A stretch of DNA of 64,000 nt. Source: Candidatus Poribacteria bacterium (lineage in GTDB: Bacteria > Poribacteria > WGA-4E > WGA-3G). The stretch is from the NCBI GenBank assembly GCA_964291315.2, contig OZ219753.1:3197610-3261609 (forward strand). Direction: 5' to 3'. The translations under genes and the position numbers were made by a program. This document shows positions 8,155 to 27,594 of the stretch, piece by piece. Below the pieces are notes generated by a model. It made no database searches. It saw only the letters and a list, made by a program, of their open reading frames with translations, and was not told where the DNA came from. The stretch's first letter is position 1, and each line of letters starts with the position of its first letter.

Positions 8155-8211
8155 ATTTTTGCAATATTAAATCTAGTCACTGTTCCGCATCCAGCAGGAA
8201 TTGTTAAACAA

Positions 8212-10448: not shown

Positions 10449-10475
10449 AGCAAATTATCTAATACAACATTACAA

Positions 10476-10748
10476 TCAAGCCAATTTTGCCTTCAAAGCA
10501 TTCAGTTTGCGGTCGAGTCTGGACTTTTGGCGGTTTCCTGTGCCTTTTTTGATAACGCCTTTACCGGCAGCTCTGTCCAAGAGACTTGCTATGTTCCTAC
10601 ACAATTCTTGTGCTTTTTCAACATCGCCTGCATCCAGTGCCGCTTCGGTCTGTTTGAGCACTGTCCGTAGCGTTGCTTTGCGATGTCGATTGCGTGTGCG
10701 TTTGGCTTTATCTGCCCGCGCGTGTTTCCTTGCAGATTGTCTATTCAA
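10476..10748 (-). CDS. rpsT: 30S ribosomal protein S20
   Basis: Basic 90 aa, SARKHAR...RN...LDRAAGKGVIKK...RQKSRL; AGGAG RBS. Confidence 0.93.
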   Translation of the reverse strand: MNRQSARKHARADKAKRTRNRHRKATLRTVLKQTEAALDAGDVEKAQELCRNIASLLDRAAGKGVIKKGTGNRQKSRLDRKLNALKAKLA

Positions 10749-11091
10749 AATTTATACTCCTTTTGAGAACTTATCCCCCGGTAATTTCATAAACCCCCGA
10801 GGCGTTGAATATCCTTCACAGGATGTGTATATTTAATGATACCACAAAATGTGGGGTTTGTCTACTTTTTTCTCATGAGTTTTCGGCTGTCAGTAATGCA
10901 CGTGATTTCTCCCAGGCTTTCTGTAGGTTGATCTTTCTAAGGCCGGCTTTTGTGGTAGGGACTCGGCGTTTCCTCTTAGAGAGCAGCGAATGGCTGGATT
11001 TCGAATCCGGACCTTTGAAACCGTATTGATTTTTCCCCGAGAAGGCAGTAAAATATTAATAAAACATTGGAAACAAAAAGGAGTTTTTTTC

Positions 11092-12861
11092 ATGAAACGT
11101 CTCCCCCTTCTCTTAATTTTTCTGCTTGGGATCGGACTTTGCGCCACCGTAGCAGCACCGCTAGAGCTCCCTAACACGCCTCCATGGAAACCTATAGGAA
11201 AATACACACACCCGGACATCCGGGAAAGTTCCGGTATTGTTACAAGTCAGCAGTTTGAAGGTGTCTATTGGACACTGAACGACTCCGGTAACCCGGCAAC
11301 ACTTTACGCCACAAAACTAAATGGCGAATTAATTCAAGAGATCACTGTGCAAGGTTCAAAAAACTTCGACTGGGAAGCACTCGGCATCGACTCACAAAAC
11401 CGACTCTGGATTGGTGAGATCGGTAATAATAGTAGATTACGGCAAGATTTAAAGGTGGTCGTCATCGCAGAACCAAACCCTTTCACTGACACGGAAGCGG
11501 TGGTCATTGCAAGTTACCCGTATCAATATCCGGACGAAAATGTTGATGCGGAAGGCCTCTTCATCGTCGAAGGATTCCCTTACATTGTCTCTAAGGAACG
11601 AGAACGGGCTGTACTTTACCGGTTTCCGGCTCTGAAACCGGATGTCAAACAGGTTTTGGGGCGCGTTGGCGAATTTGCGGAGGCAAAATTCGTAACCGGT
11701 GCCGGGGTATCGGAAGACGGAACGCGGCTGGCTGTCTGCACTTACGACGCACTCTGGGTATATAATAAGGCAACAGCGAAAGACTTAGCAGAAATGATTC
11801 AAGGTACACCGTGGCAATTGCCACACGATTTTAGCGGGGAAGCAGTCTGCTTTGACGGTTACGATCTCGTCCTAACGAACGAGGGGCGCGACCTCTACCG
11901 CTTACCACAATTTTGGTATGAGAAAGAGTGGACGCTGCCCCCAAAGAACACGCAATCGGTAGTTCCCCTATTGCCTGACGCAATTACGCATCATGCAACA
12001 GCACAGATAGAAAACTATAGTACTGCTAGCATAAATATAGGCGGGAGCTATGTCGTACTAACACCGCAGACTGACAAAGAGATCGGTTCTCTAACTATTC
12101 CAATAGAAGTGCCTTACAGCGATATTTATGAAATCAGTGCTGTTTTAACGCGAGGACCGGAATACGCGCAGGTCGAACTATCCGTGAACGGCACTGCGGT
12201 CGGCTCGCCATACGACTGCTATTCTGCTGAAACAACAGCCGGAACCTTGGTTTCGTTTGGGACGACCCCGCTGACCGCTGGGACGAACCCTACGATGTTT
12301 AGCATCGTCGGGAAGGCAGCTGAAGCGACAGACTATAAAATCGGTATCGACTCCTATCGGGTGCTGCATGCTTCACCGCTTGTTAAACACTACATGGTGT
12401 TGGGCCCGTTTTCGAAAACAGACGAGATTGACAAGATGCCCGCTCTTGGAAGTCTAGTGGATCCGAACGCAACTTACACAGATATGCATGGCAAAACGAT
12501 CCAGTGGAAGGAAACAACCACGGGGGGAGACGGGTTTCTCAATTTAAGCATAAATCTCGGCTTTGAGTCAGCAGCCGTTGGATACGCACTGATGTACGTC
12601 CACGCATCGAAACCGACTGATTCTGTGTTACTGATCGGCAGTGATGACGGGGCAACTGTGTGGTTAAATGGGGATGAAGTCTACCGAATCGACGCGAACC
12701 GCCCAGCGATTCCAGATGAAGATGCTGTTCCTTGCCAACTCAACGCCGGATGGAATGAGGTTTTGTGCAAGGTCAGTCAGGAAGGGTGGGGTTGGGGACT
12801 CTACCTGCGATTTACAGATGTAGATGGACTTCTTAAGTATAGCGTCCGACGACAGGAATAA
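11092..12861 (+). CDS. Secreted multidomain protein (N-terminal beta-propeller, CBM-like jelly roll, PA14-like C-terminal domain)
   Basis: Signal peptide MKRLPLLLIFLLGIGL; ESSG/WTLNDSGN/DWEA/DAEG propeller motifs; GSDDGATVWLNG; AAGGAG RBS before ATG 11092. Confidence 0.65.
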   Translation: MKRLPLLLIFLLGIGLCATVAAPLELPNTPPWKPIGKYTHPDIRESSGIVTSQQFEGVYWTLNDSGNPATLYATKLNGELIQEITVQGSKNFDWEALGIDSQNRLWIGEIGNNSRLRQDLKVVVIAEPNPFTDTEAVVIASYPYQYPDENVDAEGLFIVEGFPYIVSKERERAVLYRFPALKPDVKQVLGRVGEFAEAKFVTGAGVSEDGTRLAVCTYDALWVYNKATAKDLAEMIQGTPWQLPHDFSGEAVCFDGYDLVLTNEGRDLYRLPQFWYEKEWTLPPKNTQSVVPLLPDAITHHATAQIENYSTASINIGGSYVVLTPQTDKEIGSLTIPIEVPYSDIYEISAVLTRGPEYAQVELSVNGTAVGSPYDCYSAETTAGTLVSFGTTPLTAGTNPTMFSIVGKAAEATDYKIGIDSYRVLHASPLVKHYMVLGPFSKTDEIDKMPALGSLVDPNATYTDMHGKTIQWKETTTGGDGFLNLSINLGFESAAVGYALMYVHASKPTDSVLLIGSDDGATVWLNGDEVYRIDANRPAIPDEDAVPCQLNAGWNEVLCKVSQEGWGWGLYLRFTDVDGLLKYSVRRQE

Positions 12862-13018
12862 AGAACGAATTTGCACAACTGATTGTCAATTCGAGCTTCA
12901 CAACAGCAAGTGCTATCCGTTCGGACTTATAAAGCTGCGAACTACTATAGGTCCTGTCCTTTCGATTTGCATAAAGACGCATTTTCCGTTGCCTAGCGGG
13001 CGCGAGCAGAAGCACATT

Positions 13019-13040
13019 GGCGAGGTTAAGACGCCTCGCC
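13019..13040. repeat. Intergenic palindrome (REP-like or terminator)
   Basis: ggcgagg-ttaagacg-cctcgcc between convergent genes. Confidence 0.55.
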
Positions 13041-13057
13041 CAGCAAAAATGAATCTT

Positions 13058-16000
13058 TTAGACCTGTTCGACGGTTATGGTCGCGGGTTCGCCGTTGAGT
13101 TTCTGAGAAACTGTGAAGGCGTTCTCGCCCGAAGACTCGACAACGGTTGTTGTCAATGTCTCTTGCAGAATATAATCTCGATGCACCTCAAATGCTTCTT
13201 CAACAAGCAATGAAGGCGTTTCGAGACTGAGCTTAATCCGGTCTGAGACATTAAAGTCGGCTTCTTTCCGCATATTCTGGATTTTGTTGACAAGTTCGCG
13301 TGCCAAACCTTCAAGCGTCAGCTCATGTGTCAATTCGGTTGACAATGCCCCGAATTTCTTCGCGTCTACCTCCACAAAGAAACCCTCTCTATTTTGTGTT
13401 TGCACGTCGATTTCTGATTGTTCGAGTGTGTAGGTCTCGCCTGAGGCTTCGAGCTGTAGACTGCCGGTCGCTTCTAGTTCCGCCTTCAGTTGCATTGAAT
13501 TTGCAGTGGCGAGTGCCTTTGCGATGGCTTGTACACCTTTGCCATACTTCGGTCCCAAGGATCTGAAGTTCGGCTTGAGCGTCACTTGTGCGAATGCATC
13601 TAGATTCTCTACAAAGGTAATCGTCTTGACGTTGAGTTCATCGTGGACAAGTTCTGATAGACGGTTAACCGTCTTTTTTTCCAGGTCAGAGAGTCCTCCG
13701 AGTGTGAACTCGGCGAGCGGTTGGCGTGTTTTAATGCCCGATCGGTTGCGTGCAGCATGTCCCATACGGATGATCTCGCGCGTGAAAGCCATATCGGTGT
13801 CGAGCTGGGTGTCTTTTAGTGTGGCATCTGCAACTGGGTATTCTGCAAGATGAACGCTAGGTGGGGCGTTGGGGTCCAGCGAACACGCCAAGTTTCTGTA
13901 GAGTTCGTCCGAGAGAAACGGAGTAAAGGGGGCTGCGAGTTTTGCAAGGGTTACCAGCACCTCATAAAGCGTTGCATAGGCAGCCTGTTTGTCTGGTCCG
14001 GCTTTAGTCCCCCAGAATCGGTCTCGACAGCGTCGGACGTACCAGTTGCTGAGGTCATCGACAAACGTCTCAATAGCGCGCGGCGCGTTCGTGAGGTGGT
14101 AATTTTCCATGCTATTGCGTGCAGCGTCGATGAGGGTATGGAGTCGTGATAAAATCCATCTGTCCATTGTCGCCCGTTTTTTGACCGGTGGGGCATCTTG
14201 TAGCACGTCGATCTGCTCTAAGTTGGCATACATAACGAAGAAGCTGTAGACGTTGTAAAAAGTGCCCATGAACTTCTTCAGGGCTTCATCAACTCCCTCG
14301 GTTTTGAAAGTGCGCGGTGTCCACGGTGTGGTTGCGGTGAACATGTACCAGCGCATTGCGTCCGCGCCTTGTTTGTTGAGAACCGTCCATGGGTCCACTG
14401 TGTTACCTCGGCTCTTACTCATTTTTTGGCCGTCGGGTCCCATAATGAGTTCAAGGCAGAGGCAGTTTCTGTAAGCCGGTTTATCATAGAGAAGGGTGCC
14501 GGTTGCCAAGAGGCTATAGAACCAACCGCGCGTCTGATCGATGGCTTCCGAGATGAAATCGGCGGGGAACGCTTGTTCGAACATCTCTCTGTTTTCAAAC
14601 GGGTAGTGCCATTGTGCAGTGTGTGCACAGCCCGAGTCAAACCAGCAGTCAATTACGTCTTCCACGCGATGCATTATGCTGCTGCACTTACTGCAGGTGA
14701 GGACCACGGCATCCACATACGGGCGGTGCAGTTCGATATCGGCCGGAACGTCTGTGCCTCGTTCCTTCAATTCGGCGATACTTCCCACACAGTGCTGATG
14801 TCCGCAGTCGTCACAAACCCAGATCGGCAGCGGTGTCCCCCAGTATCGTTCACGACTCAGGCCCCAGTCGATGTTATTTTCTAACCAGTTGCCGAACCTT
14901 CCATTTTTGATGTGTTCCGGATACCAATTGATCTCCTGATTGTGTTGACGCATCTGATCGCGAATGGCGGTTGTTCGGACAAACCACGATTCACGGGCGT
15001 AATAGAGCAGCGGGTTATCACATCGCCAGCAGAAGGGATATTGGTGCTTATGTTCGGCAGCCTTGAACAAGAGACCGCGCCCTTTTAAATTGGCTATGAT
15101 GTGTGGATCGGCAGCCTTGACGTATTCCCCCGCCCATTTTTCTTTCACCTCTGGAACAAATCTGCCATCCGCCCCGACTAATTGCACAAGGGGCAGGTTA
15201 TATTTTTGCCCGATCTCATAGTCGTCTTGTCCAAAGGCGGGGGCGATGTGGACCAAGCCGCTACCCTCTGTCGTTGTCACGAAATCTGCTGTGACGATGT
15301 AGTGCGATTTTTCTGGGTGCTGTCCGCTATCAAACAGCGGCTCGTACTCCCAATCGCGGAGGGCACTGCCTTTATAGCTCTCAACGATTTGTGGAGATTC
15401 ATCACCGAATAGACTCTGCATACACGCTTTTGCAAGTATAAGATGCTGCCCGTTGTGTTCAACAGAGACATACTCGTAATCTTCACCGACAGCAACGGCG
15501 ACGTTAGACGGCAGCGTCCACGGGGTCGTCGTCCACACGAGCAAATAGGTGTTTTCCTGATTTTTCAACGGGAAACGCACAAAGATTGACGGATCTGAGA
15601 CTTCTTGGTACGCCAAAGCGACTTCGTGACTAGCTAAGGTTGTACCGCACCGGTAGCAGTAGGGTTGCACTTTGTGCCCCTGATACAGCAGATCCTTATC
15701 CCATGCCTGCCGAAGTACCCACCAGACGCTTTCTATGTAGTCGTTTGACAAGGTAATATAGGCATCGTCAAGGTTGACCCAGAACCCGATGCGTTCTGTC
15801 ATTTGTCGCCAGTCTTGCTCGTATTGGAACACGTTCTCTTTACATTTTTCGATAAAGTTCTGAACACCGTAAGCCTCAAGTTCGGCTTTGTTTGTAATAT
15901 TCAGCTGCTTTTCAACCTGATATTCAACGGGGAGTCCGTGTGTGTCCCAACCTGCCTTCCGGTGGACGTAGTGTCCTGTCATCGTTTTGTAGCGGCAAAT

Positions 16001-16201
16001 AGCGTCCTTCATGACGCGAGCGAGGACGTGATGCACACCGGGCGGTGCGTTTGCAAACGGCGGTCCCTCTAAGAAAACAAATGGCGGCGCGTCTTTTCGC
16101 AGCTCCATGCTCTTCTGAAAGATGTTATTTTCACGCCAGAAGGCTAAGGTATGTTTTTCTTTCTCAGAAAACGTAAATTGTGGTGATACCTCTTCAAACA
16201 T
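13058..16201 (-). CDS. ileS: Isoleucine--tRNA ligase, type 2 (IleRS2)
   Basis: EGPPFAN..GVHH, WTTTPWTLP, DQTRGWFY, KMSKS, C-terminal EGLARELVNKIQNMRK; GGAGG RBS before ATG 16201. Confidence 0.97.
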   Translation of the reverse strand: MFEEVSPQFTFSEKEKHTLAFWRENNIFQKSMELRKDAPPFVFLEGPPFANAPPGVHHVLARVMKDAICRYKTMTGHYVHRKAGWDTHGLPVEYQVEKQLNITNKAELEAYGVQNFIEKCKENVFQYEQDWRQMTERIGFWVNLDDAYITLSNDYIESVWWVLRQAWDKDLLYQGHKVQPYCYRCGTTLASHEVALAYQEVSDPSIFVRFPLKNQENTYLLVWTTTPWTLPSNVAVAVGEDYEYVSVEHNGQHLILAKACMQSLFGDESPQIVESYKGSALRDWEYEPLFDSGQHPEKSHYIVTADFVTTTEGSGLVHIAPAFGQDDYEIGQKYNLPLVQLVGADGRFVPEVKEKWAGEYVKAADPHIIANLKGRGLLFKAAEHKHQYPFCWRCDNPLLYYARESWFVRTTAIRDQMRQHNQEINWYPEHIKNGRFGNWLENNIDWGLSRERYWGTPLPIWVCDDCGHQHCVGSIAELKERGTDVPADIELHRPYVDAVVLTCSKCSSIMHRVEDVIDCWFDSGCAHTAQWHYPFENREMFEQAFPADFISEAIDQTRGWFYSLLATGTLLYDKPAYRNCLCLELIMGPDGQKMSKSRGNTVDPWTVLNKQGADAMRWYMFTATTPWTPRTFKTEGVDEALKKFMGTFYNVYSFFVMYANLEQIDVLQDAPPVKKRATMDRWILSRLHTLIDAARNSMENYHLTNAPRAIETFVDDLSNWYVRRCRDRFWGTKAGPDKQAAYATLYEVLVTLAKLAAPFTPFLSDELYRNLACSLDPNAPPSVHLAEYPVADATLKDTQLDTDMAFTREIIRMGHAARNRSGIKTRQPLAEFTLGGLSDLEKKTVNRLSELVHDELNVKTITFVENLDAFAQVTLKPNFRSLGPKYGKGVQAIAKALATANSMQLKAELEATGSLQLEASGETYTLEQSEIDVQTQNREGFFVEVDAKKFGALSTELTHELTLEGLARELVNKIQNMRKEADFNVSDRIKLSLETPSLLVEEAFEVHRDYILQETLTTTVVESSGENAFTVSQKLNGEPATITVEQV

Positions 16202-16331
16202 TTGGAAATTCCTCCGGCTCTTGTGGAAGTTGGAAGCGGCTGTCTGCTTGCCATCCGCACCGTCTTCCATCTACATCTGGAAGCGTGGGAAAGTAGTATG
16301 AAGTTCCTTCCAGATTTTCTTAGATCGTAAC

Positions 16332-16374
16332 AAAAAAACGCCCTCACCGAAATCGTCCGTTTCAGCGATGGGCA
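16332..16374 (-). terminator. Intrinsic terminator of the ileS leader (attenuator)
   Basis: GCCC-A-UCGCUGAAA/UUUCGGUGA-GGGC stem followed by G-U7 on the minus strand. Confidence 0.85.
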
Positions 16375-16404
16375 TCCGAATAAAGACTGCGTATCTACCT
16401 ATGA

Positions 16405-16503
16405 TTAGCCCACCACGGCATGATCAATAGCAATAACAGTGGGTAGGGCGCGCAGAACCGCGGCAACCCGAGGGTTCCCTGGATGTGGAACGTTGTTGCG
16501 CAT
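16405..16503 (-). CDS. Putative ileS leader peptide (32 aa; in-frame upstream ATGs extend it up to 55 aa, start 16572)
   Basis: MRNNVPHPGNPRVAAVLRALPTVIAIDHAVVG*; Val-Ile-Ala-Ile codons lie just before the antiterminator segment. Confidence 0.7.
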   Translation of the reverse strand: MRNNVPHPGNPRVAAVLRALPTVIAIDHAVVG

Positions 16504-16631
16504 CAGTTTCTTATATTGCAGCAGCATCAATGTGGGAAGCGATTTTCTGTCCATGCCTGGTTTGAATGACATTTAGTACTGTGAACGTCGACTTTTCTCG
16601 AATTTATCTGCTAAAGATATACTAGTTAATT

Positions 16632-16660
16632 ATAATACTACATTCTCTGTGGGATGTCAA
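16632..16660 (-). promoter_or_regulatory. sigma70-type promoter for the ileS leader
   Basis: TTGACA-17 bp-TATTAT on the minus strand. Confidence 0.7.
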
Positions 16661-16981
16661 CTATTTTTCCGCTGTAGAAGGCTATTCAAATGCCTCCCAA
16701 AAAATAGAAGTGTTTATAGAAAATGCCGGGGGCTATTTTTCCTTGGATCCGCTAGCAATCTCACTGGTATCTAATGATTTTGGGTTGAAAATTATAGATT
16801 TATCAGGTATACTAGATAAAAGTAGCATCTAACTTATTTTTCCCTGAATTATAGCAATCCGTTGACATTTTGCGAACCACAAATCTATAAGTGTGTTTCT
16901 CGAAAAACAGCGTATGTACATCACCTCTTACTGCTGATAGCGTAATAAATAATACAAGGATGACTCATTCGGAGAACTAGC

Positions 16982-18106
16982 ATGGCTAAACAGATTGCAC
17001 TTTTCAACCATAAAGGCGGTGTCGGCAAGACAACAACAACCTTCAATCTAGGTTGGATGTTAGCAAATAAAGACAAAAGGGTTATTATTGTGGATTGTGA
17101 CCCACAGTGTAACCTTACCGGCATGGTGCTTGGGTTTAAAGATGCTGAGGGATTCGCCTCAATGTATGAGTCGGCTGGCGTAACGAACATTCGCAAAGGT
17201 CTCGCTCCTGCTTTTGAATCGCGGCCTGCACTTATGAAACCTGTGAAGTGTACCTCTATCAGGGGACAACCGGATATGTACCTACTCCCTGGGCACATCG
17301 GTCTTGCCGAGTATGAAATTACCTTAGGGATTGCCCAAGAGCTGTCTGGATCCTTGGTAACACTTCAGAACTTGCCAGGCTCCTTGCACTATCTTTTTCG
17401 CAAGACTGCTGAAAAATACAACGCCGATTTCATCTTAGTAGACATGAGTCCAAGTTTGGGACCAATTAACCAAAACTTACTGATGACGAGTGACTATTTC
17501 ATTGTGCCGATGTTTCCTGATTACTTTTCAACCATGGCGATAAGAAGCCTCGCCTCAATTTTACCGAAATGGTCAGCATGGGCAAAGCAGGGCAAAAAGT
17601 CAACCATCTTGCAACAAGCGATTTACCCTTTTCCCGACAAGCACCCTAAGTTTCTAGGACCCATAATCCAGAATTTTCGAATTAGGGGAGGCATTCCGGC
17701 TACCGCTTTCAAAAAATGGATTGAGGAAATAAAAACGGGCATTAAGGAAAAGCTCATCCCTGTCTTACGTGAAAACAACATGCTACTTCCAGATGAATGG
17801 TATATAGAAGGGAGGTCAATTGAATCATATCAGACCCAATTTAATTTTCTTAATCCGAATTTCACACACGACTCGATCATAAGCCAACCACTTTTCCAAG
17901 TGTCAGACTTCAATAGTCTCATTGCTCTCTCACAAAAACATAAAGCCCCGGTTTTTGACTTGAGGGACGATCAGATTGGTCAAGCAGGTATAATACTTGC
18001 GAATACCAAAGCTTCGATGAAAAGGTTTTATGACTTATTTGATGATGGAGCTGACCGGATAATCACCCTCACTGAGAAGGTCGAATCCGATTGTCTATGC
18101 AACTGA
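16982..18106 (+). CDS. ParA/Soj (SIMIBI) family ATPase, orphan (no ParB)
   Basis: Deviant Walker A KGGVGKTT, DCDPQCNLT, ILVDMSPSLG. Confidence 0.9.
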   Translation: MAKQIALFNHKGGVGKTTTTFNLGWMLANKDKRVIIVDCDPQCNLTGMVLGFKDAEGFASMYESAGVTNIRKGLAPAFESRPALMKPVKCTSIRGQPDMYLLPGHIGLAEYEITLGIAQELSGSLVTLQNLPGSLHYLFRKTAEKYNADFILVDMSPSLGPINQNLLMTSDYFIVPMFPDYFSTMAIRSLASILPKWSAWAKQGKKSTILQQAIYPFPDKHPKFLGPIIQNFRIRGGIPATAFKKWIEEIKTGIKEKLIPVLRENNMLLPDEWYIEGRSIESYQTQFNFLNPNFTHDSIISQPLFQVSDFNSLIALSQKHKAPVFDLRDDQIGQAGIILANTKASMKRFYDLFDDGADRIITLTEKVESDCLCN

Positions 18107-18756
18107 CGATCTACATACCACTTGAGATAATATCCTCGAGCGTGTTGAATCCTATTGAGCAATTTCGTGGAAATATAGACCGCGTCCGAGCACACGGTAG
18201 ATTGCACGCTGCGTTCGACCAGCAGACTACTGATGTTGTAGATCTGACTGATCTTTTACGCGCCCAGATCGTTATGCTTATCAGTGCGCTTGACCACTAC
18301 ATCCACGAAATCACACGGATTGGAATGTTAGAAGTCTATGCCGGGATACGTCCAAAGACGAAGCCTTTTTCACGTTTTCAAGTGTCTCTGGACGCGACGA
18401 TAATGGGAATTTCCAAACCCAATGAGAAAGAGTGGCTTGATATAGCAATCCGAGAAAAGCATGGTCATAAAGCTTTCCAGCAACCAGATAAGATCGCCGA
18501 TGCGGTCCGGCTCTTTTCATCCTGCAAGTTATGGAGAACCGTTGCATCAGAACTTAACCTAACCGAGCAGGACGTGAAAAACCGACTCCGTACGATAGTT
18601 AACCGGCGAAATCAAATTGTCCATGGGGTTGACTTGGATCCGAGTTATCCAGGAACTAGAAACCGTTGGCAGATTTCTCCTTCGGATGTGACAGATGCCC
18701 TGGAATTCATTCAGGAAGTTTGTGAAACGATTGATGTTGTTGTTAATCAAAATTAG
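18097..18756 (+). CDS. HEPN-domain putative RNase (MAE_18760 / RiboL-PSP-HEPN-like)
   Basis: Helical protein with 'LLRAQIVMLISALDHYIHE' and R-x4-H motif RNQIVH; start uncertain (18091/18097/18142). Confidence 0.8.
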   Translation: MQLTIYIPLEIISSSVLNPIEQFRGNIDRVRAHGRLHAAFDQQTTDVVDLTDLLRAQIVMLISALDHYIHEITRIGMLEVYAGIRPKTKPFSRFQVSLDATIMGISKPNEKEWLDIAIREKHGHKAFQQPDKIADAVRLFSSCKLWRTVASELNLTEQDVKNRLRTIVNRRNQIVHGVDLDPSYPGTRNRWQISPSDVTDALEFIQEVCETIDVVVNQN

Positions 18757-18759
18757 ATC

Positions 18760-21700
18760 TCACCGCGCCATCCCCGCCTCACGATACGTCTGCTCAATCA
18801 ACGCGATCTCCGCATCTGTCAAACCATACACCCGATACACCCACGCGTCTATCTCCCGCTCTATGTCGCGCACGCCCTCGCTCTCTGGATCTGCCAATAT
18901 CTGCTCGACGAGCCGTGACAGCTCCGCTTTCTGTGCATCAGTCCGATCTGCTATCGGGGTACGGCGCATATACTGTGGCTTGAAACGTAAACCACCCGTC
19001 CAAGGATCATTAAGGCTCTGGAATTTATGGCGTGCATACCAATCAAGCAGTGTGCTGTTTAAGATAGCAAGCAAGGAGAGATCATAGGTCGGTATAAAGT
19101 GGGTTGTGTCTAACCCGAATGATTTCATTGTGTCATAGCATGCGTGAATCGATTTTGAAATCTCTGGGTACAAAATCTTCGGTTTTTCGAACTTGTCATA
19201 ATAAGCGGTATTCGCTTGTATTTCATACCACTGATAGCGTCCTGCTGCCCTATTTTCAAGTGCCTCTCTATATTGGCTCAGATGTTTCTTGACAGCTGGG
19301 TATCGGTCAATCTCAACCCCTTGCCGTGTGAAGATGAGATATTGCCCTGTGCTATCCGTCCGCCACTTTCTAAGGTCTCGCCCTCTGAGCAAAGGCTTTA
19401 TGAGCTCATCGCTCTTCGGATCCTCGGAGATCAGCCGCTGCCGCACAGCCGCATCGATGATAAATGCCTTGTTATATCCTGTTACGACCCCGCGCCAAAG
19501 TCCATCCACATATTCTCCGAGGGGTGTGCCAGTTGTTTCGAGTTTCCGCAGGAGCCGCACTGTCTCGGGCGATGCCAAGGTCCAGCCCTCCGCTGATAAA
19601 TCACGCGGATGCAGCCGAAACGCCCGCTCCCGAAACGCCGCAGACAGCCGCAGCACATCGGACGCCTCCCGAAACGTCGCCACCGAAACAGGCACTCTGT
19701 CTGATGTAGCATTTTCAAGGATCAGGATACAGGTATCCACACTCGCTTTGAAGACAGCGACACTCCCGAAGTCAAGCAGCCGCTGAATGCGTTGGGTATC
19801 GCTGAAAAAGGTACGCAGTTTTCTGCCATACGCTGCCCGCAAAAACTTGTTTGAGGAGATATACGCCAAGATGCCGTGCCTCCGCAGCAGCTCCGTGCCG
19901 CGCTTGTAAAAATAGACGTAGAGGTCTGCGGTGCCGACATACACCTCTGGGAATAGCCGTTTGTAAGTCGGCTTCATCGCTTTGATAAGTTCTTGTCGCA
20001 CATAAGGTGGGTTGCCGATCACAACATCAAAACCACCGGCTTGAAAAACCTCCGGAAACTCAACCTGCCAGACAAACGCCTCCTCCGGGGCATCTTGCCA
20101 GCCTTGAAGATCCGCTCGGAGTGTCGCGATCTGCTCTCGGAGTGCCTGTCTCTTTGCATCCCCGCGCGTGCCGAAATAGACGGCTTGCCGCTCCTGTATC
20201 TCTTGGATCAACGGCCTGTCAAGCGTCATCTGTTCGGGGGCTGCACCGGTCAAACTGTCTCCTGTTGCAACCTTATAGTCCAAGTTCGGCAGCGGTTCCG
20301 GTACGGCACCTTCATAGTCTACTGTGAGGCTCAGCCACAGGCGCAGCATCGCGATGTTGACAGCGAAGTCGTCTCTGTCCACGCCGTAAAGGTTCTTCCG
20401 GATAATCTCCAGCTTGCGTTCATACACCGTGCCAGAATCGGTCTGATCGCTTTGGAACAGAGCATCGCGCAGGCGGAGCAGTTCGCCCATCATACCGAGT
20501 AGATACGCACCGCTCCCACACGCAGGATCACACACCCGTAAGTTCTGCAGCACCGCTAACACGCCCTCTGAATCGCGGATCCCCGTGGCATCGCCTGCGT
20601 CAACAAACTGTGTCAGGCACGCCGCGCTCTCCGTTGTCTGCGTCTGCAAGCAGAGCTTCAGGCTCTCCCTGCACATGAAGGAGACAACCGCACGCGGCGT
20701 GTAGTAGCTCCCACTGGCGTGCCGCCCCGTGACGAGTTCCTCAAACACCTTACCCAGCATCTCGGGATCCACTGCAACCTCTATGTCTAGCGGCGTGGAT
20801 TCGGTGATCGTGAAGTTATAACGTTCGAAGAGGTTGAGGATGTCGGCAAAGGTGTCGTTCGGCAGATCCACTGCGTGTTGTTCATCATACGGCTGCATCT
20901 CGAAGAGTCCACCGTTGAGGAACGGCACATCGCCGCGCCGGGTGCGAGCGGCGGCATCTTCGGATCCGGACTCACCGGCGGGATTGCTGAGACCGTGGAA
21001 GAAGACGTAATAGAGCCGGTCGTTGAGCAAGCTCTCTGTCCGAGGCTCCTTGTGCTTATCAGAGATTACCCCCCCCGCTTCTTATAGATTCCGCACTGCC
21101 AGAGAGAGTCTCGATGCCCATTGCAGCCTCATACAACGCACGCAAGTAGTCCCGGCGACCCGCATACCGCAACCAACCCTTTTTTTCAAGAAAACGCAGA
21201 AACATCAAACGATTCAACAGACGCTGCGTATACAACCGACGAGCCTCCACAGCGCTCTCCGGGATCCCTGACAGCGAGGCCTCCACCAACGCAAAGACGC
21301 TCTTATACTCACGGAAAAACTGATCCGTCACAGCCGCCACATCAAACGCACGCTGCCATTTAGCAACCCACGCTTGCGACGACGAAAAACCGCCACGCGG
21401 AAACGCCAGAGCCGGCAGGTTGTATTCACACAGCGTCCGAAGGTGCGTATCCCCACGATCCCACGAGAATATAGACAGCACCGCATCCTGCCAAGACGCA
21501 CCCGCACCTGCGAAGTGGGCAAACGCAAACCGATGAAAATCAGCAGTCGTGCAGATGAATAGCAGATGATCCAGCTCCCACGCAGGCAACCGTGCATCTC
21601 GGGCGCGCCTTTCAACCAGACCCCGCAGAACCCGCCGCAACTCCGTGCGATACACCCGCTCGCTACTGAATTCAACAAAGAAGATGCCCCACGGCTGCGA

Positions 21701-21937
21701 GCCGACCTCGGGAGAAAATCCCAACGCCTCGCGCGCGAACGGCGGCAGCTGCAGACAGTCAGCGACTCGTGCCTCAGACGTTTCATCAAGCTCCAGCTCT
21801 GCTGACGACCACGGGAAAGCTATCTCGCCGAGCGTCACGTCTTCGGGGATAGGCCAGTCGAGAGTGTCACGAAAAAACGCTAAGAGCGTCTCAAAGTCAG
21901 TTATAGTATCAACATTTTCAACGGGTATATATGACAT
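18760..21937 (-). pseudogene. Type IIG/IIL (Eco57I-like) restriction-modification enzyme, frameshifted at a G8 tract (21069-21076); possibly phase-variable
   Basis: ORFs 21059-21937 and 18760-21030; PFLNGGLF, GSYYTP, DPACGSGAY, GNPPY, TaqI-C-like TRD; G8->G7 fuses them into one 1058-aa ORF. Confidence 0.85.
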
Positions 21938-22028
21938 TGGTATTCCTCAAGGGTTAGGCGATAAGTAAACGGATAACGGACATCTTGGAAAATAGACCCG
22001 ACCAACGAGACGGGTGCTTCACTCTCCT

Positions 22029-22057
22029 AATATAGCACGCACCGCTTGTTTTGTCAA
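22029..22057 (-). promoter_or_regulatory. sigma70-type promoter for the type IIG gene
   Basis: TTGACA-17 bp-TATATT with extended TG on the minus strand. Confidence 0.65.
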
Positions 22058-22123
22058 ATGTAGCACAACAGGCGTACCGGGTGTAGAACATTAATCTTTA
22101 GTGTGTACCCAAAAGATTTTGCC

Positions 22124-22152
22124 TTGACATTCAGACGTATACCGCGTATCAT
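22124..22152 (+). promoter_or_regulatory. sigma70-type promoter
   Basis: TTGACA-17 bp-TATCAT. Confidence 0.65.
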
Positions 22153-22205
22153 AGATAAAAAAGAATTTACCAATCGGAGATTAGCATTAGAATAGCATAG
22201 AAAAC

Positions 22206-24224
22206 ATGAAAAAATTAATCCTCATATCACCCTTTTTACTCTTCACGTTCTGCTTTCTACACCTGGGACTCAATACCGCCCTTTCCGTGGATTTTATCCA
22301 ATTAGAGCGTGAATTTTCAGGCAAAGGAGCAACCCAAGGGCGGTTCAGTAAGGACATTCATCTTGCCTTTGACAGACAACACATTTACATTAGCGACACC
22401 AAAAATCGATTGATTCAGAAGTTATCGGCGACCGGAGAATTTTTGCTTCAATTCCCAGAAGCACCAGAATCTCCGGACAATATTCTGCGAAAACCAGGGC
22501 ATCTGGCTGTAGATAGCATCGGGAACATCTATGTTGCCGACGTGACTGTGCACCATATTGCCGAAACTGCTGACCCAAAAGTCTACATATTTGTGCCGTG
22601 TGTCTATAAATTCAGTGCAACAGGCGAAGTGTTAGATACCTACTTTGTGGATCCGGTGGACATCCGTCCAAAGGTCGTCTTACCAGTAAATCTCATTATT
22701 GATGAACAAGGGAAAACCGCTTTCGCCATTCAACCGAACGGACATGATAGAGCCCTTCGTGTCGCGCTCAGTGCCGAAAATGAACTCTACGTCTTGGATG
22801 CAACACGAGGACGTATTCATAAATTCAGTGCTGACGGAGAGGCACTGCTCACTTTCGGTAGGTACGGTGCGGCGGACGGCGAATTTGATATGGATGCTGC
22901 AGATATCGCGGTTGACGCGACCGGAAACTTACTCATTGCAGATACCGGGAACCACCGTATTGTGAAATTTGATTCAGCAGGTCAATTTGTCGGCAGTTTT
23001 GGCAGAAAAGGGCGCGGTAACGGTGAATTCACCAAACCGATGGCGCTTGCTACACTGCCCACGGGCGAGATTTTAGTTAAAGATGCAAGTCAATTTCGCA
23101 GGAAAATAGGCGGGATGCCGGAGATCATCGCGCTCTCTCCAACATTGACACAGCTGACGGAAGTTACGCCTGGACAAGCAGAACTTGCCGATACAATCGC
23201 AAACGCAGTTCGAACCCAATACGGACCCTTCCCTCAAAGTCGGGCTGCCACCGCCGATACGGCTGCCTTGAACCGACGCGTCCGATTGCTGGAAGAAGCA
23301 GAATACAACCGTTACTATTCCGACGAAACGAACGATGAAGGTAAGACTGAACTTGCCGAAGAACTCAAACGGAAAGACATCCGTCTCACCATCTTTCATA
23401 ACGTCATCTCACGTATCCAAAAGTTTGACAGCAATGGACAGTATGTGGGACGTATCATTTATGAGACCGACCAGCTTGACGAAGCGAAACACGATCAGAC
23501 CTTCTTAGACCTTGACAATTCTGGGTACCTCTACTTGCGAGATGCCAGCGATTTTACCATCGCGCAGTATTCAGTCACAGGCTTTACTGTGAAACCTTCC
23601 CACATGAATGGATTCTATACTACGCGGGCCGCAAGTCTACGTAACAACTATTTGGAAGATTACGAAGACATTGACTTCTCAACCGATGTCCAAGATCAAC
23701 TCAGCCAATTGGAATTAAAAAATATGTTTGGATGGTCTTACAGCCTGTCTGAACGCTGGCATTTGACGCTCCTTGATGAACTAACTTACAGCGAGCAGGA
23801 TGAACGCTATATCACCCCAGCGAAAGTAGAGGACAGCTACGATTTCGAGACGCAGGCATTAGAGAACGCGTTCGCAGCGAATCTGAAGTTTATTACCAAT
23901 CCGAATCCGTATCGCTATAAGGAGCTAAATCTGTCCGTTGGACGTGTTGATGGTACATCTGATTTGACCCAGGATGCCCTCTTCCCCGAGCTCAACAAAC
24001 AACACAGAAAAGACACCGGCGACGCAAGTTCTACCGTTATTGAGCTGAATTGGGATATATGGTCACGTGGAAACTTATGGCTCCGGTATGCGGACCTGAA
24101 TCCTGCTGAAACAAGTCGAAATTTTGTTCGCCGATTTTACGATGTCTCTGGCGACCTCTATGAAGTCTTTGGAAGCCGCAACGAAGCCAGGCAGTTTATG
24201 GGCGAACTAACCCTAAAATTTTGA
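22206..24224 (+). CDS. Secreted NHL-repeat protein with a putative C-terminal outer-membrane beta-barrel
   Basis: Signal peptide; NHL repeats (DIAVDATGNLLIADTGNHRIVKFD, FGRKGRGNGEFTKP); C-terminus ends FMGELTLKF. Confidence 0.75.
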   Translation: MKKLILISPFLLFTFCFLHLGLNTALSVDFIQLEREFSGKGATQGRFSKDIHLAFDRQHIYISDTKNRLIQKLSATGEFLLQFPEAPESPDNILRKPGHLAVDSIGNIYVADVTVHHIAETADPKVYIFVPCVYKFSATGEVLDTYFVDPVDIRPKVVLPVNLIIDEQGKTAFAIQPNGHDRALRVALSAENELYVLDATRGRIHKFSADGEALLTFGRYGAADGEFDMDAADIAVDATGNLLIADTGNHRIVKFDSAGQFVGSFGRKGRGNGEFTKPMALATLPTGEILVKDASQFRRKIGGMPEIIALSPTLTQLTEVTPGQAELADTIANAVRTQYGPFPQSRAATADTAALNRRVRLLEEAEYNRYYSDETNDEGKTELAEELKRKDIRLTIFHNVISRIQKFDSNGQYVGRIIYETDQLDEAKHDQTFLDLDNSGYLYLRDASDFTIAQYSVTGFTVKPSHMNGFYTTRAASLRNNYLEDYEDIDFSTDVQDQLSQLELKNMFGWSYSLSERWHLTLLDELTYSEQDERYITPAKVEDSYDFETQALENAFAANLKFITNPNPYRYKELNLSVGRVDGTSDLTQDALFPELNKQHRKDTGDASSTVIELNWDIWSRGNLWLRYADLNPAETSRNFVRRFYDVSGDLYEVFGSRNEARQFMGELTLKF

Positions 24225-24239
24225 AGGAATTGCGTAAGT

Positions 24240-25202
24240 ATGGAATTTCGGTCACTTTATCCTGAAGAATTCGAGACCTGGTTAGAGCATGTTACGTCTG
24301 TTTTTGCAGGCGGCGGTCAATACTTTTCGAATCACTGGCACAACGATCCCTGGCGAGACGCTGAAGGGATCCGGGTCGCTGTTGATAATGGTTCCATTGT
24401 TAGTACAGTCCGCGTCTTTATTCGGAAAATGTTTTTGCACGGGGAACCAGTAAGTGTCGGGGGGATCGGAGAAGTCAGCACCCGCCCGGAATACCGTCGA
24501 CGCGGGATCGCCACACAACTTCTCAAGGATGCGATTGAATTTATGGAATCCCGTGACATCGCTATGTCCTCGCTCCACGGAAGCCAACGCATCTATTCGC
24601 TTGAAGGATGGGAAAAAGTGCCCCGCTACTATGCAAGACAATCTTTCAAGGCTGAAAAACTAGCAGAATGGGCAGTGCATGCAATGAATTTTGACAACGC
24701 AGCTGAAGTCAAACGGATCGCGGAAATCTATGATTGGTATGCACGAAAATTCAACGGCACTTTCGTCAGAGACAAGATGACTTACTGGACACAATGGGTG
24801 CGAACTGAGTCATCAAACACATGGGTTGCTAAACGTAATGGCAACATTGAAGGTTATATTTCGGTCGTCCGGCGTGACAATGAGCTGAGCGTCGAAGAAT
24901 TCATCGCTTCAGAGGCTGCTTTCGCAATGGATAAGGGCAAGCAACTTTTTAAAAACATGATTTCTCACATTATCTCCGAGCTAGACGCGAAATCACTGGC
25001 GGTCGTTTATCCGGCCCCGATCGCGGACGGTTTTAAGGCACCGAATATTGAAGAACACGGGAGCACGATGTATCGTATTGTTCAACCGGCTGTGCTTTCG
25101 ACCCGAGCCGATTCAATTCCGAGCTTGCTACACAATCAACCGAAACCTTTCGCACAAGGTATCAAGTCGCATCATATCTTTTGGTATACTGACGGATATT
25201 AA
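24240..25202 (+). CDS. GNAT family N-acetyltransferase (Eis-like N-terminus)
   Basis: GGIGEVSTRPEYRRRGIATQLL acetyl-CoA motif. Confidence 0.85.
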   Translation: MEFRSLYPEEFETWLEHVTSVFAGGGQYFSNHWHNDPWRDAEGIRVAVDNGSIVSTVRVFIRKMFLHGEPVSVGGIGEVSTRPEYRRRGIATQLLKDAIEFMESRDIAMSSLHGSQRIYSLEGWEKVPRYYARQSFKAEKLAEWAVHAMNFDNAAEVKRIAEIYDWYARKFNGTFVRDKMTYWTQWVRTESSNTWVAKRNGNIEGYISVVRRDNELSVEEFIASEAAFAMDKGKQLFKNMISHIISELDAKSLAVVYPAPIADGFKAPNIEEHGSTMYRIVQPAVLSTRADSIPSLLHNQPKPFAQGIKSHHIFWYTDGY

Positions 25203-25251
25203 GCAGCAGACAGATCAATTCATGAAGGCTTCAAAAGTGGAGGATGGAGAA

Positions 25252-26250
25252 ATGGCAAAACTGCGTGTAGGTGTTATCGGTTGTAGCGGTATCGGTACGA
25301 CACAGGTATCAGGTTTAGTCGACATGCCAAACGTTGAATTAGTCGCTGGCTGCGATTTTGTTCAGAGCACATTGGATACTTTTAAAGAAAAACACCAAGA
25401 TACCTGGGATAACATTTCTCTGTACACCGACCATCAAGAGATGCTTGCCTCTGAAAATTTAGACATTGTGACAGTGGCGACTTCTGACCATCAGCACGCC
25501 GATGTGGTCGTTGATGCAGCAAACGCCGGTGTGAAAGGCATCTTCTGTGAAAAACCGATGGCGACGAACATCGCAGATGCAGACAGAATGATGGAGGCAA
25601 CAGCACGAAACCGGACTATCCTATCAATCGATCACACCCGTCGATGGCAGCCGCTGTGGCGGCACACTAAAGAAATAGTCGTCGGCAGCGGACAGATCGG
25701 GGAAGTCCAGTATATTATCGGCACGCTGAGTGGTGGACGAGCAATGCTGTTCCGCAATGGAACGCATCTTATCGATGCTATTTGTTATTTCGCCGATTCT
25801 GATCCACAGTGGGTTTCTGCTGAGCTAGAGGAGGGTTACGAAAACTATAACGAATATAAAGGCGATGGCGGACATGATCCGGCAACGGAACCCTCGGCAC
25901 ACGGCTATATTCACTTTGCAAACGGGGTGCGCGGCTACTACGCCGGGGGGCCAAAGACCACCCTCTCGGGGTTCCGCGTGGAGATTGTGGGCACCGAGGG
26001 TTATATTCTCATCAGTGACCGAGGGGCAACACGCCATCAAGGGGAGGTCATTGAGACAATAACCGCACCGACATGGGACATTTCCGGTATCCCTGCTGGG
26101 CCACGAGAGCTGGTAGGTTTGATTACAGAAGGTGGAGAACCCGTCTCGCCTGGAAGCGAAGGCTACAAAGTTGTCCAAATTATCATCGGTTTTTTAACCT
26201 CACAACAACGCGACAATGGAAAGGTCAAGCTGCCATTGCCTGCAGGTTAA
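25252..26250 (+). CDS. Gfo/Idh/MocA family oxidoreductase
   Basis: RVGVIGCSGIG, CEKPMA, NGTHLID; GGAG RBS before ATG 25252. Confidence 0.9.
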   Translation: MAKLRVGVIGCSGIGTTQVSGLVDMPNVELVAGCDFVQSTLDTFKEKHQDTWDNISLYTDHQEMLASENLDIVTVATSDHQHADVVVDAANAGVKGIFCEKPMATNIADADRMMEATARNRTILSIDHTRRWQPLWRHTKEIVVGSGQIGEVQYIIGTLSGGRAMLFRNGTHLIDAICYFADSDPQWVSAELEEGYENYNEYKGDGGHDPATEPSAHGYIHFANGVRGYYAGGPKTTLSGFRVEIVGTEGYILISDRGATRHQGEVIETITAPTWDISGIPAGPRELVGLITEGGEPVSPGSEGYKVVQIIIGFLTSQQRDNGKVKLPLPAG

Positions 26251-27338
26251 TCCTCATCAGTTTTCAAAACAAATGCATTCTCAGGGGGCCATTGTAGATA
26301 GATCGTATCGCCGCGTTGAAAGCGTAGGGTTTCCCTCGCGCCCGTATTTTGTTGGTGAACGATGAGTGGATCTGGATAGTCGGTCTGTACTGTGTATTGC
26401 AGCGTTGTGCCAAGGTAACTTTCGTCTTGAATTACGCCGCGTAGGAGATTTGGAACATCAGAAGCGGGTGCCACTCTTAAGTTAAAACGTTCTGGACGAA
26501 TCGCAACCGTGACAGGCGTGTTCAATGGGATATCCTTGTTTGACACAGTGACAATTTTAAGCAGCGGTTCTGTTGTTAGCACAATCTCATTCTCACTGAT
26601 ACATATACCTTCAAGAAAGTTAGAGGTACCAATGAAATCCGCGACGAAGCGGTCATGTGGTGAGTCGTAGATTTCAGCGGGCGTGCCTATCTGAAGGATT
26701 TTCCCATCTTTCATCACTGCAATCCGATCAGACAGCGCTAACGCCTCACCTTGATCATGTGTAACGTAGACGAACGTAATGCCGACTTTGCGTTGCAGTA
26801 CTTTGAGTTCCGATTGCATCTGCTTTCGGAGTTTTAAGTCTAGTGCGGAAAGCGGTTCGTCTAAGAGCAAGATACTGGGTTCGTTAATTAATGCACGAGC
26901 GAGTGCGACGCGCTGCCGCTCGCCGCCAGAGAGTTCACTCGGTTTACGGTCGCCATAGCCGGTCAGTTGAATTAAATTTAATGAACGTTCAACGGCATCC
27001 GAGATTTCTTGTTTCGATGCCTTTTTCATCTGTAACCCGAAAGCAATATTCTGTGAGACCGTCTTATGAGGAAATAAAGCGTAATTTTGGAAAACAGTGT
27101 TGACAGGCCGACGATAAGGGGGCGTTTTTATCATCAATTCATCGTTGATGTAGACTTCTCCGGTGGTAGGGTACTCGAAACCTCCGATGAGGCGCAGCGT
27201 CGTTGTTTTTCCGCACCCGCTCGGGCCCAGTAGCGAAAAAAATTCACCGCCCTCTATCTGTAGCGACACGTCATCCACAGCGGTGGTGTCGCCAAACGTT
27301 TTCGTTACGGATATGAGCGTAATCTGGCCTACTGACAT
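26247..27338 (-). CDS. potA: Polyamine-type ABC transporter ATP-binding protein (PotA-like)
   Basis: GPSGCGKTT, NTVFQNYALFPH, LSGGERQR, TOBE-like C-terminus. Confidence 0.85.
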   Translation of the reverse strand: MSVGQITLISVTKTFGDTTAVDDVSLQIEGGEFFSLLGPSGCGKTTTLRLIGGFEYPTTGEVYINDELMIKTPPYRRPVNTVFQNYALFPHKTVSQNIAFGLQMKKASKQEISDAVERSLNLIQLTGYGDRKPSELSGGERQRVALARALINEPSILLLDEPLSALDLKLRKQMQSELKVLQRKVGITFVYVTHDQGEALALSDRIAVMKDGKILQIGTPAEIYDSPHDRFVADFIGTSNFLEGICISENEIVLTTEPLLKIVTVSNKDIPLNTPVTVAIRPERFNLRVAPASDVPNLLRGVIQDESYLGTTLQYTVQTDYPDPLIVHQQNTGARETLRFQRGDTIYLQWPPENAFVLKTDED

Positions 27339-27560: not shown

Positions 27561-27594
27561 TGCGGCCATTCTTGCTTTTCAAGGGACTGCACGG

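Follow-up and report, generated by a model that had tools for sequence, protein, structure and literature searches.

ParA ATPases are textbook DNA-segregation motors. Elsewhere, a P-loop ATPase is encoded upstream of a nuclease effector or fused to it, as in the two-gene abortive-infection systems of the AbiL and PARIS types, which pair an ABC ATPase with a nuclease, and in the fused anticodon nucleases PrrC and RloC. Here we analyze a pair of genes, one for a ParA-type ATPase and one for a HEPN protein, located at positions 16982..18756 of a 64,000-nucleotide (nt) stretch of DNA (the window) from Candidatus Poribacteria bacterium (GCA_964291315.2, contig OZ219753.1). An earlier reading of the window from its letters alone (the sequence-only reading) had described the pair as a candidate uncharacterized antiphage system, in which an ATPase governs an MAE_18760-like HEPN RNase, perhaps as a backup to restriction-modification (R-M).

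Two sources describe systems of this kind. Anantharaman et al. (2013; PMC3710099) predicted that a ParA/Soj gene and an MAE_18760 HEPN gene form a toxin-antitoxin (TA) dyad with the ATPase as antitoxin and the HEPN RNase as toxin, and they reported that PrrC and RloC bear a HEPN-type nuclease. Like the window pair, the 2013 dyad combines a gene for a ParA/Soj-like SIMIBI ATPase with a HEPN gene whose Rx4-6H motif is intact. Unlike the window pair, its HEPN belongs to the MAE_18760 family, whereas that of the window is of the RiboL-PSP-HEPN type. The table in the 2013 paper lists RiboL-PSP-HEPN as fused to L-PSP and in an "operon with ParB," not with ParA (PMC3710099). More recently, Li, Burroughs, and Aravind (bioRxiv, October 2026, 10.64898/2026.10.19.760177) described two-gene "ParA-effector systems" of the ConB1 clade, in which a HEPN RNase is one of seven effector types. 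In their model, ParA captures the DNA of the invader, and the effector kills the cell should this fail. The one experimentally studied relative that they cite is a ParA-HeH-HEPN system of Salmonella, which has three genes, unlike the two-gene architecture in the window.

The window pair resembles the ParA-effector systems in joining ParA to a single gene for an enzymatic effector, in its broad scatter among prokaryotes, and in the variable partners of its ParA clade, for which we found one other partner as well as solo copies. Its ParA also shows the sequence marks that Li et al. give for PriB1/ConB1, namely, an Asn before the Walker A motif, a Val inside it, and a Gln two positions past the DxD (N9, V14, and Q42 in the window protein). 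From the architecture and these Walker A and sensor-1 marks, we infer that the window pair is a HEPN variant of the ParA-effector systems. The gene for a winged helix-turn-helix protein upstream of some of their exemplars is not conserved in the ParA-HEPN loci analyzed here, and the sections of the preprint on ParA-effector systems do not mention the sister architecture with an AbiLi-like ATPase that we describe below. The pair type had already been predicted in print, contrary to its earlier billing as an uncharacterized system, and the window copy adds a member (PMC3710099; 10.64898/2026.10.19.760177). In agreement with the sequence-only reading, our full-text literature searches, with most subscription journals outside their coverage, found no bench study of a two-gene ParA-HEPN pair. 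What we add is that ParA-HEPN pairs form a large, strictly paired family and that the HEPN partner is of the RiboL-PSP type. We assign a probability of roughly 60% to the reading that the pair is an ATPase-governed RNase effector or toxin module of mobile-element conflict.

Results

A ParA-HEPN pair found across phyla

Both genes of the window pair lie on the forward strand. The first, recognized from an open reading frame (ORF) listing and Pfam, encodes a 374-amino-acid (aa) ParA-type ATPase of the SIMIBI, deviant Walker A kind (16982..18106, +). The second encodes a RiboL-PSP-HEPN protein (PF18735; 18142..18756, +) of 204 aa, counted from a GTG at 18142 on the basis of the ORF, Pfam, and the starts of homologues. 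A protein word search gave 499 HEPN relatives at E ≤ 0.001; PF18735 is present in all 120 that were listed, most of which are about 200 aa long. In a collection of one genome per species (185,579 species), we found approximately 400 HEPN-encoding stretches and kept 80 loci for analysis. These loci come from Poribacteria, Chloroflexota, Acidobacteriota, Cyanobacteria, Alpha-, Beta-, and Gammaproteobacteria, and others.

The sequence-only reading had staked itself on the two genes occurring together elsewhere. Analysis by tblastn revealed a full-length ParA relative (45 to 79% identity) directly upstream and on the same strand in 79 of the 80 HEPN loci, and in the sole locus without one the HEPN gene lies at a contig edge. 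This pairing is far beyond chance. Overlaps of 4 or 14 nt between the ParA stop and the HEPN start are seen in most loci. When the two closest ORFs on each side (295 ORFs from 79 loci) were grouped by similarity, they fell into 246 clusters, the largest of which covers 5 loci. Hence, no third gene is conserved with the pair, which has ended up at many different sites. Pairwise distances among ParA proteins and among HEPN proteins are correlated (r = 0.78 over 2415 comparisons of 70 complete pairs), which signifies inheritance as a unit and nothing more, as is expected of linked genes, and is not independent evidence. A Chloroflexaceae locus (L051:1153-3924) carries a second ParA-type gene (352 aa, AAA_31 at 2.6e-29) directly upstream of the pair.

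Exchange of the ATPase and of the partner

On viral contigs from IMG/VR, ParA is kept beside 11 of 14 HEPN relatives. Of the three contigs without ParA, one (L125) carries a HEPN-like ORF on its own, next to a phage tail S gene. On the other two (L123 and L124), the PF18735 HEPN gene is preceded by an overlapping gene for an ABC-type ATPase that matches Pfam AAA_21 (PF13304) and the AbiLi model of PADLOC (2.5e-58 and 6.5e-85). We scanned metagenome contigs with a 2-sequence alignment of these AbiLi-linked HEPNs and kept 80 loci, 62 of which had room upstream. An AbiLi-like ATPase is encoded directly upstream in 61 of the 62 testable loci and ParA in none (0/62); the exception, L170, has a partial match. 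The AbiLi-linked PF18735 HEPNs carry an extra segment of about 45 aa at the N terminus. Of the two proteins of this sister module, PADLOC models the AbiLi-type ATPase but not the HEPN. The sister module is located at L123:72-1735, at L124:3430-5516, and in metagenome loci L130-L209.

Partners are also exchanged on the ParA side. Relatives of ParA were present in 32 plasmid records. On a Burkholderia gladioli plasmid (L127:3498-5455), the gene downstream of a ParA from the same clade (40% identical) overlaps the ParA gene by 4 nt and encodes a 311-aa protein that has no Pfam or PADLOC match and may be an alternative effector. Solo copies of the ParA clade lie beside Tn3 and IS110 transposases and an Abi gene in Pantoea and after an S24/HTH (prophage-type) repressor in an E. 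coli record; a solo copy in Vibrio has "mobile mystery" genes and one type I R-M gene as neighbors. One HEPN family is served by two unrelated P-loop ATPases, and one ParA clade has varied partners or none. This modular exchange therefore points to the ATPase as the regulator or sensor and to the HEPN protein as the effector, and it is the best comparative evidence for that assignment.

By analogy, the sister HEPN clade behind an AbiLi-like ATPase strengthens the suggestion of the sequence-only reading that the ATPase would govern an RNase effector by a PrrC/RloC-like logic. That clade, with its HEPN gene directly behind one for an AbiLi-like ABC ATPase, is laid out like the AbiL, PARIS, PrrC, and RloC systems. 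The window pair differs from AbiL and PARIS in having a SIMIBI ParA rather than an ABC ATPase and a HEPN effector rather than the second protein of AbiL or PARIS. It differs from PrrC and RloC in its separate genes, in its SIMIBI ATPase, and in being linked to R-M in only some loci.

The ParA-type ATPase

Pfam matches of the ATPase are led by AAA_31 (3.7e-31) and CbiA (1.4e-14), followed by weaker matches to ParA, NifH, ArsA, BcsQ, VirC1, and MipZ. Its translation contains the deviant Walker A motif KGGVGKTT (17012..17035, +), which includes the signature Lys11 and the Walker A Lys16. Residues K11, K16, D38, and D40 are kept in 70/70 complete pairs and the Walker B residue D154 in 99%, and the marks N9, V14, and D38-C-D40-P-Q42 are invariant in alignment A2 and in the 70 pairs. 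The protein ends in a C-terminal extension of about 170 residues. Li et al. portray the C-terminal extension as evolving rapidly; in the pairs analyzed here, its conservation is only moderately below that of the core (column identities of 0.58-0.69 versus 0.77-0.82), and it is not fast-evolving.

An AlphaFold2 (AF2) model of the ATPase (mean predicted local distance difference test score [pLDDT] of 86.7, predicted template modeling score of 0.90) shows a predicted ParA/Soj core with extra helices and strands after residue ~200, a long terminal helix (336-371), and a low-confidence insert (283-287). The insert is replaced in related strains and gapped in other phyla. In a Foldseek search with this model, the best match was 3pg5 (1e-12), followed by Soj (2bek), ParA, McdA, and MinD, with E values of 1e-12 to 1e-8. 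The structure 3pg5 is that of DIP2308, an uncharacterized ParA-like protein of Corynebacterium diphtheriae from structural genomics. DIP2308 is also the best solved relative by profile comparison (E = 5.6e-27 over the ATPase core). At 361 aa it is of similar length, and it faintly matches the conserved C-terminal "DFNxL...PVF" segment of the window ParA, but the identity between the two is just 20-27%.

The Foldseek list also includes DNA-bound ParA/Soj structures (5u1j and 8jmj), as would suit an alternative in which ParA is the main effector, coating or sequestering invader DNA as a polymer, and HEPN is a second-line suicide effector, let loose if the coating fails. This is the model stated for the ParA-effector systems, and Li et al. 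propose ParA as the main effector for the majority of immune ParAs (10.64898/2026.10.19.760177); solo members of the ParA clade in transposon and prophage contexts fit it as well. However, the HEPN gene is no optional add-on in the HEPN-linked clade, where 79/80 loci keep it and its catalytic residues are invariant. The C-terminal part of ParA also lacks the fast evolution described in the preprint, although it is less conserved than the core. We consider this alternative improbable.

We also compared the ATPase with partition proteins. No NCBIfam model for partition, MinD, or BcsQ proteins reaches its cut-off with this ATPase: the bit scores are 59.4 against a cut-off of 180 for ParA_partition, 47.9 against 348 for partition_RepA, 35 against 400 for PrgP, and 24 against 725 for SopA; the alignments to ParA_partition, PrgP, and SopA are confined to the P-loop region. 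The ATPase thereby stands apart from partition ParAs, as the sequence-only reading had supposed, a separation drawn from curated model cut-offs and the sequence marks of the preprint. That reading had also noted the absence of ParB from the window, which we confirmed. The PF02195 (ParB_N) profile has zero matches in the whole window genome (4.40 Mb, 4 contigs, 95.2% complete); the same search matched 10/14 control genomes. The genome contains a single other ParA-like match, which is weak (C4:2670533-2670712).

A genome with no ParB_N match and one other weak ParA-like match would leave room for a partition or positioning cassette for mobile DNA, with ParA as the motor and the HEPN fold as a noncatalytic adaptor replacing ParB. 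Type Ib partition operons likewise consist of ParA and then a small, highly variable second gene, and copies of the pair occur on plasmids and phages. Nevertheless, the R-x4-H motif and other polar HEPN residues are invariant across phyla, which would be needless for an adaptor, and the same HEPN family stands behind an ABC ATPase in the sister clade. The ParA is far below all NCBIfam partition cut-offs. The operon is adjoined by no adaptor of a known partition kind, and repeats in 16271-18800 are short two-copy matches only, with no iteron- or centromere-like array. A partition cassette is thus very hard to credit.

The HEPN protein

The sequence-only reading had noted a helical protein with an intact R-x4-H motif next to the ATPase, and this was confirmed: the translation contains RRNQIVH, the R-x4-H motif of HEPN RNases, at 18604..18624 (+). 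It had also likened the protein to the MAE_18760 HEPNs, and here the family had to be reassigned. The protein scores 53.4 bits against a cut-off of 28.4 for HEPN_RiboL-PSP (PF18735; residues 46-218 of the 221-aa ORF) and falls short of the MAE_28990/MAE_18760 model (PF18737), for which it scores 16.9 bits where 26.8 are required (E = 0.0075, with the match limited to the C-terminal part). All 70 complete pairs retain R156 and H161, as do distant family members, and further polar residues of the HEPN are invariant across phyla. Residue 162 (18625-18627) is Gly in the window and Glu in 97% of 70 homologues, and the window copy may be a slightly degenerate variant.

The longest ORF for the HEPN protein (18091..18756, +; 221 aa) starts at a TTG at 18091, and a further upstream start is available at ATG 18097, which would overlap the ParA stop by 10 nt. 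The N termini of homologues (MLxPIEQFR) align with GTG 18142, and a contig of a related strain has an ATG exactly at this position. Because the homologue starts and the ATG of the related strain coincide there, the product is probably a 204-aa protein that starts 36 nt past the ParA stop. The two genes had been described as abutting or overlapping. The ORFs do overlap if read from ATG 18097 or TTG 18091, but the probable start leaves a gap. In the related strain, the ParA-HEPN junction (window 18075-18148) is swapped for 8 nt, which yields the ATG start.

An AF2 model of the HEPN protein is predicted to be all-helical (pLDDT 90.7). Foldseek gave no match at E ≤ 0.001, and the weak matches that head its list are for the most part HEPN toxins from MNT-HEPN pairs. 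In VIA-align, the top 12 rows are mostly HEPN domain proteins or toxins, with Z scores of 7.9-9.4 (Z below ~13 can reflect a generic helical bundle), and they include the C-terminal region of AbiA. Among the closest folds are the HEPN toxins of HepT-MntA, a type VII TA system (5yep, 7ae2, and 6m6u; Z of 8.6-9.1), for which Foldseek gave probabilities of 0.8-0.89 but E ≥ 0.26. In both HepT-MntA and the window pair, the regulator gene comes first and the Rx4H HEPN gene second. The partner in HepT-MntA is a nucleotidyltransferase, whereas that of the window is an AAA_31/CbiA ATPase with no NTP_transf match. The window HEPN is also longer (about 200 aa versus 130-150 aa for HepT), and it has no sequence-level match to any solved HEPN; a search of its profile against the sequences of solved structures gave no meaningful match (best E, 0.57).

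Patchy distribution and carriage on mobile elements

The window genome has one copy of the pair, which is chromosomal. The HEPN gene is present in 9/36 other species genomes of the genus and in 1/24 genomes from other families of the order. The pair is not the segregation system of the chromosome, because it is chromosomal yet occurs in only 9 of these 36 congeneric genomes. The window ParA shares 61-65% identity with its relatives in a Cyanobium, a Pseudomonas, and a Methylobacter and 54% with one Poribacteria copy; judging by such identities, ParA relatedness does not track taxonomy.

More diverged pairs, with ParAs 38-41% identical to that of the window (E values of 1e-81 and 5e-94) and HEPNs about 30% identical and still above the PF18735 cut-off, are found on mobile elements. 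Thirteen Burkholderia plasmid records carry a diverged pair, and 9/13 are typed as conjugative. The Pseudomonas filamentous phage WX-TY carries one beside its integrase gene (L082:2676-4308), and a Pf1-type phage record also matched the HEPN. In the Pf-type filamentous phages (WX-TY and AY324828.1), the pair occupies an accessory slot adjoining the integrase gene; full-text searches for literature on Pf phages with HEPN or ParA found nothing relevant. The pair is patchy, accessory, and linked to mobile elements. The picture drawn by the sequence-only reading, of a conserved, self-contained module with intact catalytic residues in both proteins, is supported, together with this patchy, mobile-linked distribution.

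Carriage on conjugative plasmids and a filamentous prophage, where addiction pays, and a patchy chromosomal distribution are also what a plain addiction TA pair would show. In such a pair, HEPN would be the toxin and ParA a constitutive antitoxin, acting through ATP-dependent binding or modification, and the only function would be to stabilize the carrier DNA. The order of the genes, with the putative antidote first, the toxin second, and overlapping or adjacent frames, is the usual layout of type II and type VII systems. A disrupted HEPN gene beside an intact ParA gene in 3/79 loci is a common fate of toxin genes, and this function was predicted in 2013 for the related MAE_18760 dyad by analogy with MNT-HEPN (PMC3710099). 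On the other hand, an ATPase of 350-370 aa with fully conserved catalytic residues and a conserved extra domain would be costly for an antidote. The same HEPN family also works with an AbiLi-like ABC ATPase, of a kind familiar from abortive infection, and the occurrence of the ParA clade alone or with another partner is a poor fit to a dedicated antitoxin. We therefore judge plain addiction to be rather unlikely, though a serious contender. Many TA pairs defend against phages, and this alternative and the conflict-module reading overlap and are not exclusive.

Predicted binding, neighboring defense genes, and points against a conflict module

If the ATPase of a conflict module restrains the HEPN protein, the two might bind directly. 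Structure prediction of the ParA-HEPN complex gave a score of 0.46 (runs of 0.43, 0.47, and 0.46) compared with 0.00 for the best of 3 controls, with a predicted contact agreement of at least 91% and a partner pLDDT of at least 85. The mark used here was reached by 116/157 solved complexes and 2/215 mismatched pairs; at scores of ≤0.60, it was reached by just 18/157 solved complexes and by both mismatches. The complex-modeling check proposed with the sequence-only reading thus separated the pair from its controls but placed it within the weak-support band, and the models lend weak support to direct binding.

Some copies of the pair have defense genes as neighbors. In a Poribacteria locus (L029:1588-7363), the pair lies between a type III restriction endonuclease gene and a fragment of a type III methyltransferase gene; an unusual gap of 389 nt separates ParA from HEPN in this locus. 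Neighbors in L068 and L078 are a type I S subunit gene and PDC-S23 or PDC-S05. Other defense neighbors are HEC-01 (L016 and L019), AbiEi (L069), RmrA (L070), TIR (L073), and full-length mad3 (L054 and L057). Linkage of the pair to R-M genes is sporadic and does not define the system. The proposed role as a backup to R-M did not hold up: flanks vary in nearly every locus, R-M genes are present in some only, and the adjacent type IIG gene in the window is frameshifted.

To quantify these associations, we scanned 150/152 immediate neighbors from 77 loci with PADLOC (E ≤ 1e-5), the 143 second neighbors lying outside the scan. The control consisted of ORFs of at least 80 aa, from the same caller, in 20 evenly spaced 8-kb stretches of the window's own genome only. 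PADLOC matched 25/150 immediate neighbors, in 20 loci, and 14/124 control ORFs, the latter mostly housekeeping look-alikes. As look-alikes we classed partial ABC-ATPase mad3, DndA/IscS, UvrD/GajB, MotAB/Zor, HEAT, and CARF-LolE matches; full-length mad3 matches (E ~1e-92) were counted as specific.

Several observations weigh against the conflict-module reading. The defense-island enrichment that the sequence-only reading expected is not significant in the raw counts (25/150 versus 14/124; Fisher P = 0.23). The specific subset differs (17/150 versus 2/124, P = 0.0014), but it was classified after the data had been seen and against a one-genome control, and we regard co-location with defense genes as a hint, not proof. 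PADLOC-DB v2.0.0, to which that reading had also pointed, has no system model for the pair; its models match the HEPN protein with 0 families and the ParA over residues 2-40 only, a P-loop-level match to PDC-M28B. The complex score of 0.46 falls in a range in which passing pairs are more likely to be false than true, unless binding was already probable on other grounds. Four loci, all in draft assemblies, have defects: in L069 the first 68 ParA residues are seemingly missing and the HEPN gene looks intact, and in L005, L048, and L080 the HEPN gene is disrupted. These defects are uninformative as to which partner is the antidote. No fused ParA-HEPN was found among proteins of 358-2000 residues, which is weak evidence. 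The window copy itself is slightly atypical in its Gly162 and in its GTG start without the usual overlap. Finally, RNase activity, toxicity, the sensing roles, and phage protection are properties that we infer only.

The locus in the window

The pair is AT-richer than its neighbors. Its G+C content (GC) is 0.42-0.46, versus 0.49-0.54 for the ileS gene and 0.55-0.60 for the type IIG gene, and that of 16500-16999 is 0.364. The flanking genes are as described in the sequence-only reading: upstream, a 1070-aa ORF with a KMSKS motif (13058..16270, -), taken as ileS, and on the other side an ORF at 22206..24224 (+), for which NHL is the label of that reading. These two genes are more than 1 Mb apart in 5 closed congeneric genomes (G006, G007, G014, G018, and G024), and the pair therefore sits at a synteny break. 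Judged from this gene order, a rearrangement or an insertion took place at the 6-kb stretch that contains both the pair and the R-M gene. An Rfam scan of 16000-22300 gave no match at E ≤ 0.1, and no tRNA genes were found in 8000-28000.

A consensus scan identified a candidate sigma-70-like promoter, TTGAAA-17 nt-TATACT (16785..16813, +; 10/12 matches, a pattern match only), about 170 nt upstream of the ParA start within the intergenic region of 36% GC. The AT-rich region 5' of ParA also contains a two-part motif twice (16615-16670 and 16805-16849), the copies being 173-190 nt apart. The motif consists of AGrTATACTAGwTAA and a 22-nt segment with TATTTTTCC at its end, and the promoter-like site lies partly within its second copy. 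The repetition may reflect a duplicated operator or may be due to chance.

Downstream, 3 bp separate the end of the HEPN stop codon (18756) from the end of the convergent type IIG ORF (18760), as the sequence-only reading stated. The type IIG R-M gene (18760-21937, -) is split into a 292-aa ORF (21937..21059) and a 756-aa ORF (21030..18760) by a 1-nt frame change at a G8 run on the reverse strand (21069-21076), with the second frame open from 21081. Positions 538-1144 of the PADLOC REase_MTase_IIG model match the long ORF and positions 187-262 the short one. The frameshift could be phase variation, an assembly error, or a sign of a pseudogene. Across 18712-21400 in four public runs, contigs over the type IIG gene have a summed depth several-fold to ~20-fold above that of contigs over the pair, and the exact contig from the best run breaks off at 18789, only a short way into the type IIG gene. 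In those samples, therefore, the R-M gene looks multicopy or shared by many strains. The window copy of the pair is an ordinary accessory gene pair in an R-M-rich genome.

Discussion

In the reading that we favor, the pair is a conflict module with the following mechanism. The HEPN protein would be a metal-independent RNase and a toxic effector, and the ParA-type ATPase, made just before it, would serve as both regulator and sensor. In normal cells, ATP-bound ParA dimers would bind the HEPN protein and hold it inactive, probably by blocking the HEPN dimer that forms a composite active site. An invader would alter the nucleotide cycle of ParA or titrate ParA away. Candidate cues are foreign DNA bound by the C-terminal region of ParA and a partner protein encoded by a phage or plasmid, for example a foreign ParB. 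The released RNase would then cut cellular RNA (tRNA, rRNA, or mRNA) and so arrest the growth of infected cells. When carried by a plasmid or prophage, the pair would also be an addiction or competition element.

A more specific version of this mechanism would treat the PF18735 HEPN as a portable "warhead" mounted on two unrelated ATPase sensors, a SIMIBI ParA and an AbiLi-like ABC ATPase, with the ParA version triggered by the partition or DNA-organizing machinery of the invader. We offer it as speculation that is more apt to be wrong than right by a good distance. If it were true, foreign ParB-like proteins or invading DNA would stimulate or titrate ParA and so release the RNase. The pair would be an antiplasmid or antiprophage system that reads the segregation apparatus of mobile DNA, and its carriage by filamentous phages and conjugative plasmids would reflect competition between mobile elements rather than host defense.

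The family is open to study in tractable copies, since cultivated carriers exist (for example, Caulobacter vibrioides T5M6) and phages and plasmids carry it as well. The AbiLi-like sister module is the most useful new point to emerge from our analysis, and it provides a natural comparison for what the ATPase senses. If the ParA of these pairs controls a toxic RNase, it would represent a different use of the same switch that drives DNA segregation.

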